This document shows, piece after piece, positions 28,831 to 44,628 of a DNA stretch of 64,000 nucleotides. The notes under the pieces are model-generated. The model did not search any database and was not told where the DNA came from. It saw nothing but the letters and a program-made list of their open reading frames with translations. The stretch's first letter is position 1. Each line of letters starts with the position of its first letter. The position numbers and the translations under genes are program-made. The stretch covers positions 2,055 to 66,054 of the forward strand of contig URVV01000006.1 in the NCBI GenBank assembly GCA_900551455.1, in the 5' to 3' direction. This DNA comes from an uncultured Mycoplasmatota bacterium. GTDB lineage: Bacteria; Bacillota_I; Bacilli_A; RF39; UBA660.

Positions 28831-29355
28831 TTATTTTATGATCTCTTCATTGATATAATTTTCATTAATTTTATCGATGCTTTTATCTTCTTCGCTATCT
28901 AAGTTATCCCAAGTTTCTTCTTCATCAACGGATGAAATTTTTACTTTAGTGTCACCGATTATTTCAAGTCCAAGTTCTTTTTCTATTTCTAGATTAATAT
29001 TGGTACCATCAGATTTTGCTGAGATGCAAGTTGGTTGTTTTAAACTTCTTACAATTATATCTTTGTTAACGATATCTTTGTTAGAAGTTGACATTTTTTC
29101 TTCTTCAGTATAGGTTATTTTTTTTGTTATAACAGCGGTTTTTGTATCTGAATCATATGAATACCAGATATTTGCATCAAAACTACCATTTATTAGAATT
29201 TTTCCATTATCTTCCCTAGCAGAAAAATTATGGTTAATGATCCAGCAACCTAAGATGGTGGTAGGAACTTGTTCTACGGTTATTTGATAGGAATTACGAT
29301 ATTTTTTCTTTCCTTTTCCAATGACGGCTTTGGTAACTATCTCTTTGTATGCCAT
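28831..29355 (-). CDS. cotE: Spore coat morphogenetic protein CotE homologue
   Basis: Blockwise similarity to B. subtilis CotE recalled from memory: YKEIVTKAV.GKG, ILGCWIINH, ANIWYSYDSDTKT.V, LKQPTC, acidic C-terminus; likely start MAYKEIV. Confidence 0.6.
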   Translation of the reverse strand: MAYKEIVTKAVIGKGKKKYRNSYQITVEQVPTTILGCWIINHNFSAREDNGKILINGSFDANIWYSYDSDTKTAVITKKITYTEEEKMSTSNKDIVNKDIIVRSLKQPTCISAKSDGTNINLEIEKELGLEIIGDTKVKISSVDEEETWDNLDSEEDKSIDKINENYINEEIIK

Positions 29356-29406
29356 TATATCACTCCTCACTTTAAGATATGCTAAAATAATAAAAAAAGC
29401 ACTTTT

Positions 29407-33688: not shown

Positions 33689-35113
33689 TTAACCTCTTTT
33701 CTGATTCTTTAGTTTGAAAATTATATAACATATTAGTAGGTATACTCCTATTAATAATAGTGATTTTAAATAGCTAGCTTGTTTGATTGGAATTATAAAT
33801 TCTACAAGTATTAAGATAATGCATAAGATAATATTTTCGTATAAAATTGTTAAAATCTTTTCTAAATAATTCTTTTCTTTTTGATACTTATTTGTTAGAT
33901 AGATATGATTTATTATTATAGATAAAAGCATAGCAATTATGGTACTTAAAATATCTCCATACATTAGGCTATATCCCATTCGATAAAAGGAATTTATAAG
34001 TGGGATCGTTAAGATTAATTTAAAGATTAGACCTGTTATTAGACTTATAAGAATTATTTTTTTATTTTGAATACTTTTGAAGGTTATATCGTATAGGGAT
34101 ATAAAAATTGCTAAAAAATTTAATATTAGTAAATAGATTGATTTACTTGAATCATAAAATATAACATTACATATTAAGGGAGAAATAATACTGAATATTA
34201 TTGATAGTGGTAAAGTTATACGAATTGATAGATATATTTTATCAAAAACATTCCCTACTTTATGGTATTTTTTAGTAATATATTCCAGGATAAATATGAG
34301 GTAATTAATGATTGTTAATCCATAGAAGTAGATAAAGGTTATGTCATTATCTATTTGAGGAATAGCATAGCCATATCTTGTAGTTAAGATTAAATATAGG
34401 AGAATAATTGATATATAGTAGTAACTATTTTTTACTATATTAATGATACTTGTGGGGTAACAATTTGTCAATACTTTTTTAATTTCTTCGTGGTAGTTTA
34501 CTTTAAGAGTTTTCTTATCTTGAAGGTTCTTTTTTGATTGTAATTTGATTATTTCATATATGATTATTAAGATTACTAGAAAGCTTATTATTTTTGATAA
34601 ATATAGAAGAGAAATGGCAAGGGTGTTTTTTAAATGAAAGATTCTAAAGCTTAATGTTGTAATTATTATAAGGAGAAACGAATCAATTATATAGTAGGTA
34701 TTTAGAATAAGGCTTGGATTTTTATATTTATTTGTTTCTAAATAATCTGTAAGAATATTTAAAGTTGGTTCAATTGTTATGGTTAATCCCATTAGAAGAA
34801 AGATAATAAATAAGTCTTCTAATTTTAGAGCGTTAGAGGCAATGTCACTCAGAATAAGTCCTAGTAGCAGGAAGAAAAATGAAATTACACTAATAGTTAA
34901 CATAGATAATTTTAAGAGTTTTATTTTACTCTTGTTATTAGAAATATTTTCAAGATTATCCTTAATGGTTATACTTTTGAAGAATGAAATGAAAACATTA
35001 TATAGGCTTAGTGATAAGACATAATAAAAAATGCTTTGTTTACCTACTAGATAATAAATTATAATAGTTGTTAATAATTCAATTGTTTTAATAATTATAT
35101 TTTTTTCCCTCAT
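33689..35113 (-). CDS. Polytopic integral membrane protein (12-14 TM; possibly MOP/Wzx-like flippase superfamily)
   Basis: 474 aa, almost entirely hydrophobic helices; no catalytic motifs recognised. Confidence 0.3.
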   Translation of the reverse strand: MREKNIIIKTIELLTTIIIYYLVGKQSIFYYVLSLSLYNVFISFFKSITIKDNLENISNNKSKIKLLKLSMLTISVISFFFLLLGLILSDIASNALKLEDLFIIFLLMGLTITIEPTLNILTDYLETNKYKNPSLILNTYYIIDSFLLIIITTLSFRIFHLKNTLAISLLYLSKIISFLVILIIIYEIIKLQSKKNLQDKKTLKVNYHEEIKKVLTNCYPTSIINIVKNSYYYISIILLYLILTTRYGYAIPQIDNDITFIYFYGLTIINYLIFILEYITKKYHKVGNVFDKIYLSIRITLPLSIIFSIISPLICNVIFYDSSKSIYLLILNFLAIFISLYDITFKSIQNKKIILISLITGLIFKLILTIPLINSFYRMGYSLMYGDILSTIIAMLLSIIINHIYLTNKYQKEKNYLEKILTILYENIILCIILILVEFIIPIKQASYLKSLLLIGVYLLICYIIFKLKNQKRG

Positions 35114-35189
35114 AACCGTTCCCTACTTTATTTAATTTTAACAAATTAATGGTTTTTTTTCAAGTAAAAGTATGCTAAATGATTAAAGA

Positions 35190-35212
35190 AAAAAAGTTCA
35201 ATGAACTTTTTT
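35190..35212 (-). terminator. Rho-independent terminator ending the bacteriocin operon
   Basis: AAAAAGTTCA-at-GAACTTTTT hairpin a few nt after the peptide stop, T-run on minus strand. Confidence 0.7.
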
Positions 35213-35217
35213 TCTTT

Positions 35218-35382
35218 TTATTTTACGGGACAATATGTTTTGGTTACGAATCTTCTTATGGCACTGCCAACATATTTTCCTAAATTATAAACTGTATTTA
35301 TAGCTTTTGATATGGCGTTAATCCAAGAAGATGTGATGGCTCCGCCAGTTATTTCAGTCATTTGTTTTTGCTTTAGTTCCAT
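35218..35382 (-). CDS. Bacteriocin precursor peptide B with double-glycine leader (54 aa): MELKQKQMTEITGG / AITSSWINAISKAINTVYNLGKYVGSAIRRFVTKTYCPVK
   Basis: Hand-translated; ATG at 35380-35382 with RBS AAAGGAAG; 14-aa GG leader; cationic 40-aa mature peptide with AxxxA/GxxxG motifs; below 60-aa ORF-track cutoff. Confidence 0.75.
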   Translation of the reverse strand: MELKQKQMTEITGGAITSSWINAISKAINTVYNLGKYVGSAIRRFVTKTYCPVK

Positions 35383-35399
35383 ATTTTTACTTCCTTTCT

Positions 35400-35537
35400 T
35401 TAATTACGACAGCGACTTGGATTGGTATAACCGCTAAACAAACCGATTAAAAATACTATTGCTGAGGCAATACCGCTAACTAAACGCCAAGATACGCCAC
35501 CGGGGACTTCAGTCATTTGTTTTTCATTTAATTCCAT
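35400..35537 (-). CDS. Bacteriocin precursor peptide A with double-glycine leader (45 aa): MELNEKQMTEVPGG / VSWRLVSGIASAIVFLIGLFSGYTNPSRCRN
   Basis: Hand-translated; ATG at 35535-35537 with RBS AAAGGAG overlapping upstream stop; GG leader near-identical to peptide B; hydrophobic GxxxS/GxxxG mature peptide. Confidence 0.75.
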   Translation of the reverse strand: MELNEKQMTEVPGGVSWRLVSGIASAIVFLIGLFSGYTNPSRCRN

Positions 35538-35548
35538 TAATTTCTCCT

Positions 35549-35968
35549 TTACAGATATTCTTTTAAATATTTAACTAGAGTTTTATTTTCTTTGACTATT
35601 TTTATTTCATAAACATTGTTATTAATACTTTTTAGATTGGAAATATTTAAATAAATATAAGTATAACTGTTACCAGATTCATCGAGATATGTATGATCAT
35701 CAATATGATTTACTTGATACCGATATTCTTGATTATTAAGTAATAAGGTGTTATTATTTATAAAATATTTTAAATAGTTAGATTTTGTTACAACTATTAA
35801 TTCATTATCTTTATACTTTCCTTCTGTTAAGTAATATGATTGATATTTATAGGTAAAAATAACATACAGGAAGATAATAATTATTATTAGAATAATTAAA
35901 CTAATATTATATATTTTAGGATATTTATTCCTTTTTAAAATTATTTCTATATCGAGAATGTCATTCAT
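35549..35968 (-). CDS. Small bitopic membrane protein in bacteriocin operon (candidate truncated accessory or immunity protein)
   Basis: 139 aa; one N-terminal TM (ISLIILIIIIIFLYVIF), Tyr/Asn-rich ectodomain; ATGAATGA-type overlap with the transporter gene. Confidence 0.45.
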   Translation of the reverse strand: MNDILDIEIILKRNKYPKIYNISLIILIIIIIFLYVIFTYKYQSYYLTEGKYKDNELIVVTKSNYLKYFINNNTLLLNNQEYRYQVNHIDDHTYLDESGNSYTYIYLNISNLKSINNNVYEIKIVKENKTLVKYLKEYL

Positions 35969-38033
35969 TATAGGTTAAGATACTCCTTTTACTTAGGTTG
36001 ATAACTTTAGTATATAAATCCATATTGTCTAGTCGATGGGAAATAATGATAATAGTTTTATGTTGATAGTTGTCAAAGATGTTTTTTAAAATTTTCCTTT
36101 CAAGGTTTATGTCTATTTCATTTAGACCTTCATCTATTAAGATATATGAAGATTCTTTTAATAAGGCCCTAGCTAAAATAATACGTTGTCTTTGTCCACC
36201 AGATAAATTTACACCATTTTCCTCTAAGGGATAATTATATGAGAGTAAATTATCTTTAACTAAATCGTCTACATATGTTATTTTACAAACTTTTAAAAAT
36301 TCTTCTTCAGAGATGTTTCTTGATAAAGTTATATTATTTCTAATAGTATCTGTATATAATAATTCATTTTGTGATAAATAAGTAAATTTTGTTCTAATAT
36401 CTTTTATAGTTAAATCATTTATATCATAATTATTAAGATATACTTTGTCTCTTGACACAGGATAATATTTAAATAATATCTTTAATAGGGATGATTTTCC
36501 ACTACCAGAAGGACCTAATATCAAGACTTTTTCAGCTTTTTTTATTTCTAACGATAAATTCTTAAAGACCATATGTTTTTGATTATAACTAAATGATAAA
36601 TTGTTTATTTTTATAGTGCCATAAACATTTAAATTACTTAGCTTGTCTAGCTCATCATATTTATAATTTAAAATTGTATTAATTCTTTTTATACTGTTTT
36701 TGGCATAAAAGAATTCTTGGTAAAAATCAAAAACTTGGCTAAGAGGATTTATAAAGTAAGATAACAATGTATTATAGGTAAGTATACTACCAATAGTGAA
36801 TGATTTATCCATTATATAAGTTGTTCCTAAATAAGTTATAAATAATATTAAAAGACTACTTACTATGTTTTTTAGAAATTCTTCAGATATTGATAACTTT
36901 GATAATGATAAATTATCATTAATATAATTTAGGTATTTATAATTAATTTTCTTGGTAAAATTAGACTCTAGATTTAAACCCTTTATAGTTTCATAACTAC
37001 TTATGGTTTCAGTTAAGAATGAATTTACCTTGGCACCACTTTCTTGAATAGTATCAGTATATCTTTTAATACTATTTTTGTAAGCCAAGAAAATTAAGAG
37101 GTAGATGAATGCTAATAATAATACAATATAAGTTAATTCTTTATTAATGATAAAGAGAATTATTAAGGTAAAAATTGCTAGAATGCTATCTAGAAAGATA
37201 GTTATTATTATTTTAGAAATAACATTCTTTATATAGAATAAATCATTAATACGTGAGATTACTTCTCCTGTCGACTTATTTTTGTAATAACTATATGGAA
37301 GGGAGACTATTTTGTTAATTGTGGTAGTTATAATGGATAAATCTATTTTTTGATTTAAATATAGTAAGAGATTATTTCTTAAAAATTCACTAACTTCTTT
37401 AATGAATAAAATGAAGATAAAAATTATTAAAACAATTACTAGATTTAGTTTGTTAGTATAGATAATTTTATCAATTATTACTTTAAAGTGATAACTATAT
37501 ATACATGTAAAAATAGTTGCTATTAAAGTAAGAAGAATCAATTTAATTATTATTTTTTTATTATTTTTGATAGTATTAACTATAACATTAAGAAGATAAT
37601 TATTTTCACTATAAGTTGGTAATTTTTTATATGGTTCTAGTAAGAGGATATTTCCTGTAAATAGAGTATTAAATTCATTAATAGACATAGATACCATTCC
37701 TTTAGCTGGATCCATTATAGTAATTTTATTATTCTTTATTTTGTATACTACAACAAAGTGATAATAATTATTAATTACTATTTGACTAATGAAGGGAGTT
37801 ATATCTGGGGATAATGATGTAATGTTATCTATTTTATATCCTTTGGAAGTTAAGCCAATTTCTTTGGCTGCTAGAGATAAATTATAAAATGTTGTACCTT
37901 CTTTAGTGGTGCTTGTTAGTTCTAATAAACGTTCTTTAGAAATATTTCCTCCATAATACTTAATGATGGACAAAAGACAGGCACTACCACACTCTTTTAT
38001 ACCTTCTTGTAATACGGTATATTTTTTTGTCAC
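35961..38033 (-). CDS. Bacteriocin-processing ABC transporter with N-terminal C39 peptidase domain (LagD/ComA/SunT family)
   Basis: 690 aa; C39 Cys motif QEGIKECGSACLLSI, His (YHFVVVY) and Asp; 6 TM; Walker A LGPSGSGKSS, signature LSGGQRQR, Walker B ILIDE; GTG start at 38033-38031 with RBS GGAGGTGA. Confidence 0.85.
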   Translation of the reverse strand: MTKKYTVLQEGIKECGSACLLSIIKYYGGNISKERLLELTSTTKEGTTFYNLSLAAKEIGLTSKGYKIDNITSLSPDITPFISQIVINNYYHFVVVYKIKNNKITIMDPAKGMVSMSINEFNTLFTGNILLLEPYKKLPTYSENNYLLNVIVNTIKNNKKIIIKLILLTLIATIFTCIYSYHFKVIIDKIIYTNKLNLVIVLIIFIFILFIKEVSEFLRNNLLLYLNQKIDLSIITTTINKIVSLPYSYYKNKSTGEVISRINDLFYIKNVISKIIITIFLDSILAIFTLIILFIINKELTYIVLLLAFIYLLIFLAYKNSIKRYTDTIQESGAKVNSFLTETISSYETIKGLNLESNFTKKINYKYLNYINDNLSLSKLSISEEFLKNIVSSLLILFITYLGTTYIMDKSFTIGSILTYNTLLSYFINPLSQVFDFYQEFFYAKNSIKRINTILNYKYDELDKLSNLNVYGTIKINNLSFSYNQKHMVFKNLSLEIKKAEKVLILGPSGSGKSSLLKILFKYYPVSRDKVYLNNYDINDLTIKDIRTKFTYLSQNELLYTDTIRNNITLSRNISEEEFLKVCKITYVDDLVKDNLLSYNYPLEENGVNLSGGQRQRIILARALLKESSYILIDEGLNEIDINLERKILKNIFDNYQHKTIIIISHRLDNMDLYTKVINLSKRSILTYNE

Positions 38034-38073
38034 CTTCTCACCTCCTCATTAATATTGTTCGTAAAAAGAAAAG

Positions 38074-38108
38074 AGTTTTACTTTTTTTTAGTAAAACTTT
38101 TTTTATTT
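38074..38108 (-). terminator. Rho-independent terminator after murC
   Basis: AGTTTTACT-ttttttt-AGTAAAACT hairpin with flanking T/A runs. Confidence 0.6.
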
Positions 38109-44551: not shown

Positions 44552-44628
44552 TGGTAGCGACGGAGGGGGTCGAACCCACGACCTATCGGGTATGAACCGA
44601 TCGCTCTAGCCAACTGAGCTACATCGCC
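44552..44628 (-). tRNA. tRNA-Met (anticodon CAT, elongator type), CCA encoded
   Basis: Hand-folded cloverleaf: GGCGATG acceptor, GCTC/GAGC D-stem, ATCGG-TTCATAC-CCGAT anticodon arm, TTCGA T-loop, ...ACCA; very close to Bacillus elongator tRNA-Met. Confidence 0.8.

Follow-up and report, generated by a model that had tools for sequence, protein, structure and literature searches.

Two very small genes stand side by side on the minus strand of contig URVV01000006.1 (assembly GCA_900551455.1), from an uncultured Mycoplasmatota bacterium, and the question that they raise is whether their products work together as one bacteriocin. The stretch of DNA analyzed, here called the window, comprises 64,000 nucleotides (nt; positions 2,055 to 66,054 of the contig). 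Within it, the two genes, designated pepA (35400-35537) and pepB (35218-35382), are the last two of a minus-strand operon that runs from a peptidase-containing ATP-binding cassette (ABC) transporter (PCAT) through a small membrane protein, acc139, to pepA, pepB, and a hairpin. The initial annotation of this locus proposed that the pair encodes a two-peptide bacteriocin of the class IIb type. The comparisons described below make it moderately probable that pepA and pepB indeed encode a two-peptide, bacteriocin-like (class IIb-like) unit.

Both open reading frames (ORFs) were confirmed by translation, with the positions and products first given for them. The pepA gene encodes a 45-amino-acid (aa) precursor consisting of the leader MELNEKQMTEVPGG (35496-35537) and the mature part VSWRLVSGIASAIVFLIGLFSGYTNPSRCRN (35403-35495), and is preceded by the ribosome-binding site AAGGAGA (35543-35549, 5 nt upstream of the start). 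The pepB gene encodes a 54-aa precursor with the leader MELKQKQMTEITGG (35341-35382) and the mature part AITSSWINAISKAINTVYNLGKYVGSAIRRFVTKTYCPVK (35221-35340), its ribosome-binding site GAAAGGAAG lying at 35390-35398, 7 nt upstream of the start. As the initial annotation had it, both leaders are 14-mers that end in Gly-Gly; they are identical at 10 of 14 positions and share hydrophobic residues at positions -4, -7, and -12. The mature peptides were likewise correctly described as cationic, and neither contains an acidic residue. Peptide A (31 aa, net charge +3, grand average of hydropathicity 0.61) has the Eisenberg hydrophobicity of a transmembrane helix, and peptide B (40 aa, net charge +6) is strongly amphipathic, with a helical hydrophobic moment of up to 0.67. 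Each contains a GxxxG motif (G32-G36 of PepA, encoded at 35430-35444; G35-G39 of PepB, at 35266-35280) and a single cysteine (Cys43 at 35409-35411 and Cys51 at 35230-35232), located 3 and 4 residues from the C-terminus, respectively. An AlphaFold2 model of PepB, built from a 109-sequence alignment, consists of a single helix over precursor residues 18-47 (predicted local distance difference test score [pLDDT] of ~84 in that region) that runs through GxxxG and leaves the cysteine-bearing tail unstructured; a fold search with this model returned no matches, as expected for a single helix. The predicted monoisotopic masses are 3382.80 Da for mature A, 4432.41 Da for mature B, and 7813.19 Da for an A-B disulfide heterodimer.

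The initial annotation took the two genes to be unannotated and missed by routine ORF calling, which does not hold: the exact sequences are present, with the genes called, on hundreds of public contigs, and GenBank lists each peptide as a "hypothetical protein [Mycoplasmatota bacterium]" under the accessions MDO4395056.1 (one peptide) and MDO4395057.1 (the other). No further member of either family was found in the 64-kb window, and searches with single sequences retrieved only a handful of relatives, whereas profile searches revealed two large families. The profile searches yielded 232 clusters for pepB and, among 1.84 billion proteins, 111 representatives for pepA, linked to a C39 ABC exporter; the sources include human-gut and goat-colon assemblies. 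Over 109 aligned PepB members, the columns G13, G14, N22, K26, L34, G35, G39, S40, R43, R44, and C51 are invariant. The pepA family is more variable (33% mean column identity), with G14, G36, and C43 invariant and G13, F29, G32, and P40 nearly so. When pepA and pepB were compared with six related loci, the nonsynonymous difference (pN) was 0.12-0.29 and the synonymous difference (pS) 0.43-0.75, for a ratio of nonsynonymous to synonymous substitution rates (dN/dS) of ~0.15-0.27, figures that are approximate because dS is near saturation. Judged from these alignments, pepA and pepB are real genes under purifying selection.

A distinctive feature of both families is a module at the C-terminal end. 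The glycines of GxxxG are conserved in both (G32 in 96% and G36 in 100% of PepA; G35 and G39 each in 100% of PepB), and their spacing to the cysteine is fixed: counted from the second glycine, it is 7 residues in 155 of the 169 distinct sequences of PepA and 12 in 170 of the 171 of PepB. Exactly one cysteine is found in 108 of 120 mature PepA and 123 of 124 mature PepB sequences, and 48 of 53 distinct A/B pairs carry one cysteine in each partner. The earlier observations of a GxxxG motif in both peptides and of exactly one cysteine near each C-terminus therefore extend to both families, and the second is considerably strengthened by the fixed register. An invariant cysteine column in a family of 33% mean identity is not a matter of chance. 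The register fits a parallel helix pair that would pack on its GxxxG faces and bring the C-terminal thiols together. If the peptides are a two-peptide, bacteriocin-like unit, an A-B disulfide is a genuine possibility, with at best an even chance of being correct; the alternatives are a free thiol, homodimers, or contacts with a receptor. A literature search turned up no disulfide between the two peptides of any class IIb bacteriocin. Disulfide-linked heterodimeric antimicrobial peptides exist outside bacteria, frog distinctin being one example, and pediocin-like loci encode PedC-type thiol-disulfide accessory proteins. What these have in common with pepA and pepB is the idea of a disulfide link, or of assisted disulfide formation, that stabilizes a small antimicrobial peptide; there is no homology, and the origin is different.

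Two kinds of departure from the one-cysteine pattern were observed. The closest divergent PepB variants (L004:8805-8969 and P0023) have an extra cysteine within GxxxG (GKHCG and GKQCG), so that the pair totals three. In five pepA-family clusters (P0014, P0019, P0143, P0147, and P0238), the C-terminal GYTNP..C.. is replaced by a common ending, (L/Q/H)(T/I)(K/N)L(K)(WQK...), with loss of the cysteine. Simply shifting the window sequence by a single base fails to yield this ending, which could reflect a recurrent frameshift, an assembly artefact, or a real allele.

The operon supplies the machinery that double-glycine peptides would be expected to use. Its genes are tightly packed: the ABC and acc139 genes overlap by 8 nt, acc139 and pepA are separated by 11 nt, and pepA and pepB by 17 nt. 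A 15-bp, A/U-rich, terminator-like hairpin (35185..35217, minus strand) lies directly 3' of the pepB stop codon; its predicted RNA fold has an energy of -14.4 kcal/mol (z = -4.9), with none of 200 shuffled sequences folding as well, and it probably marks the end of the operon. The exporter gene (35961..38033, minus strand; GTG start, GGAGGTG ribosome-binding site) encodes a 690-aa protein in which Pfam identifies, all above cutoffs, Peptidase_C39 (1.9e-33), a six-helix ABC_membrane domain (1.1e-35), and ABC_tran (1.7e-24). Against TIGR01193 ("peptide cleavage/export ABC transporter"), the protein scores 396 bits, below the cutoff of 523.85, and so is a divergent member. The C39 double-glycine peptidase domain (residues 4-135, encoded at 37629..38024) aligns to that of PCAT1, a bacteriocin exporter of solved structure from Clostridium thermocellum (4ry2), at 3.7e-30, such that the motifs Q..ECGSAC, YHFVVVY, and MDPAKG correspond to DCGAAC, HFVVIY, and ADPGKG. 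The residues that we take to be catalytic, by analogy with PCAT1 and ComA, are Gln9, Cys15, His92, and Asp108; in the alignment, the active-site positions are intact, which is consistent with cleavage of the leaders. The window exporter thus has the same three-domain architecture as PCAT1 and ComA but serves a different cargo, and it is followed by a single-pass protein of ~140 aa rather than by an accessory protein of ~450 aa of the HlyD/ComB type. No modification enzyme was found near the cassette, and no LanM, radical SAM, or glycosyltransferase gene in any locus examined; a lanthipeptide, a glycocin, or another modified peptide was accordingly ruled out.

The pairing of the two genes extends far beyond the window. 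The close relatives comprise six species-level genomes (L016-L019, L021, and L022; "Bacilli bacterium" or similar) and several metagenome contigs, in which, wherever the contig reaches, the order is that of the window: MOP flippase, murC, ABC, acc139, pepA, pepB, a gene for a 474-aa membrane protein, pyrophosphatase, and ackA. Identity to the window among close relatives is 63-92% for the flanking enzymes; for the cassette proteins it is 45-69%, with the exception of L004, which is closer, and L020, which is more distant. L020, a seventh genome, has the cassette in a different setting, with an unrelated protein gene and then argS after pepB. The pepA-pepB order is also kept in 9 closer loci. 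A set of 80 distant loci was obtained by a metagenome scan seeded with a six-sequence alignment of a distant pepA branch, and the ABC proteins of these loci are only ~31-54% identical to that of the window. Among them, pepB directly follows pepA in all 71 that have at least 200 nt of downstream sequence (median gap, 9 nt), and a full-length C39 ABC gene lies just upstream of pepA in 33 of the 36 with enough sequence. Between the ABC gene and pepA, an acc139 homologue is found in 39 of 60 loci, and most of the other 21 have no room for one. In the distant loci, pepB is followed either by rpsU, yqeY, rpsB, and tsf, by polC, or by other unrelated genes. Gene order across these loci therefore delimits the conserved unit as ABC, optional acc139, pepA, and pepB. 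A further link between the peptides comes from P0246, a single 102-aa ORF made up of a complete PepA, EEKN, and a complete PepB precursor with its own Gly-Gly leader. This ORF is either a natural A-B fusion or the result of a lost stop codon or a sequencing error; whichever its origin, it confirms that the two peptides are neighbors in a distant lineage as well.

Such strict pairing is difficult to reconcile with the explanation that A and B are two independent one-peptide (class IId) bacteriocins that share a transporter, each active alone and without synergy. One would expect independent toxins to come and go separately, whereas A and B occur together in every one of the 71 loci, in fixed order and nearly abutting, are fused in P0246, and carry the same type of module, GxxxG followed by cysteine at a fixed distance. 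The explanation has some appeal, given that A is hydrophobic and B amphipathic, and the two are very different in character. Moreover, multi-bacteriocin loci with one common PCAT are frequent, and single-cysteine one-peptide bacteriocins, such as lactococcin B, exist. On balance, independent action appears quite improbable, and the two-peptide unit is the better account of the linkage.

To what extent the peptides belong to recognized bacteriocin families depends on which family members are compared. The window peptides score 12.4 (PepA) and 13.4 (PepB) bits against NF038034 (lactococcin G-beta/enterocin 1071B; cutoff, 37), with alignments that start at the leader and enter the mature part, and neither matches TIGR03949 ("class IIb bacteriocin, lactobin A/cerein 7B family"; cutoff, 21.5 bits) at E ≤ 1. 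By contrast, 87 of 102 pepA-family members match TIGR03949, and several exceed its cutoff (for example, P0165 with 32.6, P0223 with 28.9, and P0231 with 28.0 bits); P0004, a close relative of the window PepA, falls just below it at 20.3 bits. The lactococcin G-beta model is matched by 78 of the 102 and Pfam Bacteriocin_IIc (PF10439) by 69. Matches in the pepB family are weaker, the best to TIGR03949 being 3.4e-4. In the pepA family, TIGR03949 and PF10439 match the leader plus the glycine-containing hydrophobic segment. The TIGR01847 double-glycine signal is matched in relatives, and Protein Data Bank sequence searches with both profiles matched only the leader, to that of pre-carnobacteriocin B2 (1ry3). 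A difference from the TIGR03949 family is the signature F.IG...GY.(N/R)P.(K/R)C(N) at the C-terminal end of PepA, which lies only partly within the 45-position model. Lactobin A and cerein 7B themselves are longer and glycine rich and have two cysteines within one chain.

The wider features of class IIb can also be compared. According to a review of the class (PMC2850506), the genes for the two peptides are adjacent in one operon, a dedicated ABC transporter removes the double-glycine leaders, the operon always includes an immunity gene and also encodes an accessory protein of unclear role (possibly immunity), GxxxG occurs in all characterized members, and both peptides are needed in roughly equal amounts; the word "cysteine" is never used in that review and "disulfide" once. 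All of the features that can be checked in sequence are found for pepA and pepB except the immunity gene. Like lactococcin G, enterocin 1071, and plantaricin EF/JK, the pair consists of two small cationic peptides encoded side by side in one operon, with double-glycine leaders, a C39 ABC exporter of their own, a small accessory protein, no modification enzymes, and GxxxG in helical segments, one peptide being more hydrophobic and the other more amphipathic. Unlike class IIb, the two peptides have no recognizable sequence similarity to these bacteriocins beyond the leader, each has an invariant C-terminal cysteine, the leader is 14 residues long rather than 15-30, the operon has no immunity gene and stands among housekeeping genes, and the host belongs to an uncultured low-GC gut lineage (Mycoplasmatota/Bacilli) rather than to the lactic acid bacteria. 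A literature search found no paper with these sequence motifs or with an RF39-type gut bacteriocin of this kind, the supplements of the IIBacFinder survey (PMC12648112) being outside that search.

Several observations weigh against a bacteriocin. In Pfam and NCBIfam, the window PepA and PepB reach no curated bacteriocin-family cutoff, and they have no Pfam match at all. No conserved immunity gene adjoins the pair in the distant loci or in L020, and no regulatory gene, histidine kinase, or response regulator was found near the cassette. The housekeeping neighborhood in which the cassette sits is conserved over several species, and the mature region of PepB varies less than its leader (mean frequency of the commonest residue, 0.80 versus 0.66); neither is typical of arms-race toxins. 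About one distant locus in three has no accessory gene acc139. Finally, the disulfide is not assured because the host is an anaerobic gut bacterium and the cassette encodes no thiol oxidoreductase. The class IIb-like assignment thus stands in part: the C39 exporter operon, the invariable pairing, and the relatives above the TIGR03949 cutoff support it, whereas the missing immunity gene and the subthreshold scores of the window peptides do not.

Much of this contrary evidence would suit the main rival reading, a non-antibiotic, producer-directed pair, for example, a signal or a membrane/envelope factor of reduced-genome gut bacteria, that leaves the cell by the same export machinery as a bacteriocin. 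With the producer population or the host as the target, no immunity gene would be needed, and a position that stays constant across species, beside housekeeping genes with products of 63-92% identity to those of the window, a PepB mature part that is better conserved than the leader, and a dN/dS of the peptides that is similar to that of neighboring membrane proteins, not elevated, all point the same way. The pheromones ComC and BlpC also use double-glycine leaders, and a few family members match those models weakly. A signal, however, has no obvious partner here, since no sensor kinase or response regulator lies beside the pair in any locus examined; peptides of 31-40 residues that are cationic, transmembrane-like or amphipathic, and equipped with GxxxG follow the pattern of bacteriocins rather than that of pheromones; and family members exceed the cutoff of a class IIb hidden Markov model (HMM). 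A role of this kind is therefore considered unlikely, and a two-peptide, bacteriocin-like unit remains the preferred reading.

The place of acc139 (35549..35968, minus strand) bears on a further alternative. This 139-aa single-pass membrane protein has no Pfam match. The window copy reaches NCBIfam MAG1140_fam (NF045999) at E = 0.019 (15.1 bits; cutoff, 35), and 12 of 23 members of the acc139 family match that model at E ≤ 1 (best, 3.3e-7). A single-sequence AlphaFold2 model is poor (pLDDT 55.8) and depicts a transmembrane helix, a beta-rich domain, and a C-terminal helix. The protein is probably a miniature transport accessory protein, although, as the sole immunity candidate of the operon, it may instead protect the producer, and its profile matches make a distant relationship to the mycoplasma MAG1140 family likely. 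A PedC-like thiol oxidoreductase was considered and ruled out because acc139 contains no cysteine. In a number of distant loci (L026, L029, L031-L035, L039, L052, and L095, among others), the ABC gene abuts or overlaps pepA, and no acc139 homologue is encoded within 6 kb. Its absence from about a third of the distant loci implies that acc139 is dispensable or encoded elsewhere in those lineages.

This patchy distribution argues against the possibility that only one peptide is the effector and that the other peptide, or acc139, is an inducer, a chaperone, or an immunity factor. So do the facts that both peptides carry cleavable export leaders of the same type and that pepA and pepB are conserved equally strictly. 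A point in its favor is that the role of the accessory protein in class IIb is unresolved and may include immunity (PMC2850506); another is the occurrence, in a few loci, of a PepB-like protein that has no leader and is anchored in the membrane, suggesting that domains of this type are able to function inside the membrane of the producer. Overall, a single effector appears very improbable, and the evidence is better explained by A and B acting jointly. The leaderless proteins are the products of a third small ORF, which is found just after pepB in two loci (L083:3019-3189 and L097:1671-1841) and 2.5 kb downstream in a third (L030:3880-4032). They have no double-glycine leader, an N-terminal transmembrane segment, and a C-terminal half resembling PepB (LG...G..IR.....C; E = 2e-5 to 8e-4 against the PepB HMM). 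Such an ORF is rare (3 of 80 loci); it could encode a membrane-anchored PepB mimic that serves as an immunity decoy.

The resemblance of the operon to loci of cultured mycoplasmas goes beyond acc139. The window exporter matches NF045998, the Mbov_0121-family ABC model, at 324 bits, so that the exporter and acc139 together resemble the mycoplasma pair formed by this ABC protein and the MAG1140-family protein; unlike the members of that pair, both window proteins fall below the cutoffs (324 versus 500 bits and 15.1 versus 35). These profile matches suggest that the same exporter-plus-mini-accessory module exists in cultured mycoplasmas. No paper characterizing the Mbov_0121/MAG1140 loci was found in the literature search. 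Eight pepA-family members, P0152 among them, also have weak matches (best, 9.9e-5) to NF045747, the "MPN313 family protein" of Mycoplasma pneumoniae. Taken together, the MPN313, MAG1140, and Mbov_0121 links hint that cultured mycoplasmas may encode related leader peptides, and they suggest a type of cargo to seek in them.

How the preferred two-peptide, bacteriocin-like unit might work can be outlined by analogy. As in other PCATs, the C39 domain would cut after Gly-Gly while the ABC part exports both peptides, with cleavage releasing the 31-residue hydrophobic A and the 40-residue amphipathic B. Outside the cell, A and B would act as one unit, their GxxxG faces packing into a parallel helix-helix pair. 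This pair would insert into the target membrane and cause leakage; as with lactococcin G and the plantaricins, a membrane protein would probably serve as the receptor. More speculatively, the C-terminal cysteines could form an A-B disulfide that locks a 1:1 heterodimer. Self-protection would have to come from acc139, from a gene elsewhere, or from the producer having no receptor. When all of the parts are joined, the result would be the first example of a covalently linked two-peptide bacteriocin, its hydrophobic and amphipathic chains held 1:1 by GxxxG packing and a C-terminal interchain disulfide, exported by a minimal PCAT plus a mini-accessory module shared with mycoplasmas, and vertically inherited without an immunity gene in uncultured, reduced-genome gut Bacilli/Mycoplasmatota as a part of the basic lifestyle of the lineage, for example, the lysis of neighbors for nutrients, and not as an accessory weapon of single strains; in this complete form, the proposal is a doubtful one, offered tentatively.

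Since a class IIb HMM family that already exists takes in members of this one, the system is not of a new kind. What is new here is the C-terminal module, in which each chain has a single invariant cysteine, a mini accessory protein shared with mycoplasmas, the lack of a visible immunity gene, and a host lineage without a characterized bacteriocin. If A and B are active together, they represent a large bacteriocin family (hundreds of sequence clusters) from an uncultured gut lineage, no member of which has been characterized. The fixed GxxxG-to-cysteine register in both chains yields a precise structural hypothesis, a disulfide-locked heterodimer, and the mature peptides, with 31 and 40 residues, are short enough for direct synthesis. 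The missing immunity gene and the housekeeping context raise the question of how, or whether, the producer protects itself.

The genes around the operon are of other kinds. Upstream lie murC and a MOP-family flippase gene, and downstream are genes for the 474-aa polytopic membrane protein, a CBS-DHH pyrophosphatase, AckA, a DHH phosphoesterase, and a CotE homologue. The gene for the 474-aa protein (33689-35113, minus strand) overlaps the pyrophosphatase gene by 43 nt and is separated from pepB by the hairpin and a promoter-like site. Conservation of the protein (46-53% identity) is confined to the close clade, where its gene invariably stands between those for PepB and the pyrophosphatase; none of the 80 distant loci has it, nor does L020. 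Having no homologue in any distant locus, it stands outside the cassette, and it was ruled out as an immunity protein or cassette member. It matches nothing in Pfam or NCBIfam. A weak collinear profile match to the neighboring MOP flippase (hhalign probability, 8.9%; E = 0.0037) was observed, and one homologue matches Polysacc_synt at 0.021; the protein may be a very divergent flippase-like protein.

The gap that separates murC from the ABC gene contains, at 38063-38098 (minus strand) and only ~30 nt before the ABC start codon, a hairpin of 9 bp (AGUUUUACU, loop A7, AGUAAAACU) with a U-rich run after it. As this leaves no room for a promoter between the hairpin and the ABC start, the operon is probably transcribed by read-through, and it may be attenuated at this hairpin. 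Taken as a whole, the 140-nt intergenic region has no significant fold (z = -1.7); in its minimum-energy structure, an upstream CCAUCCCUC stretch pairs with the ABC ribosome-binding site. Elsewhere in the window, a tRNA gene (44555-44628, minus strand) is the sole Rfam family at the gathering threshold, and a 179-aa ORF (28831-29370, minus strand) has a counterpart on related contigs that carries the Pfam spore-coat domain CotE. Although this metagenome-assembled genome is labeled Mycoplasmatota, the presence of murC, MOP flippases, and CotE suggests that the organism is probably walled and perhaps sporulates.

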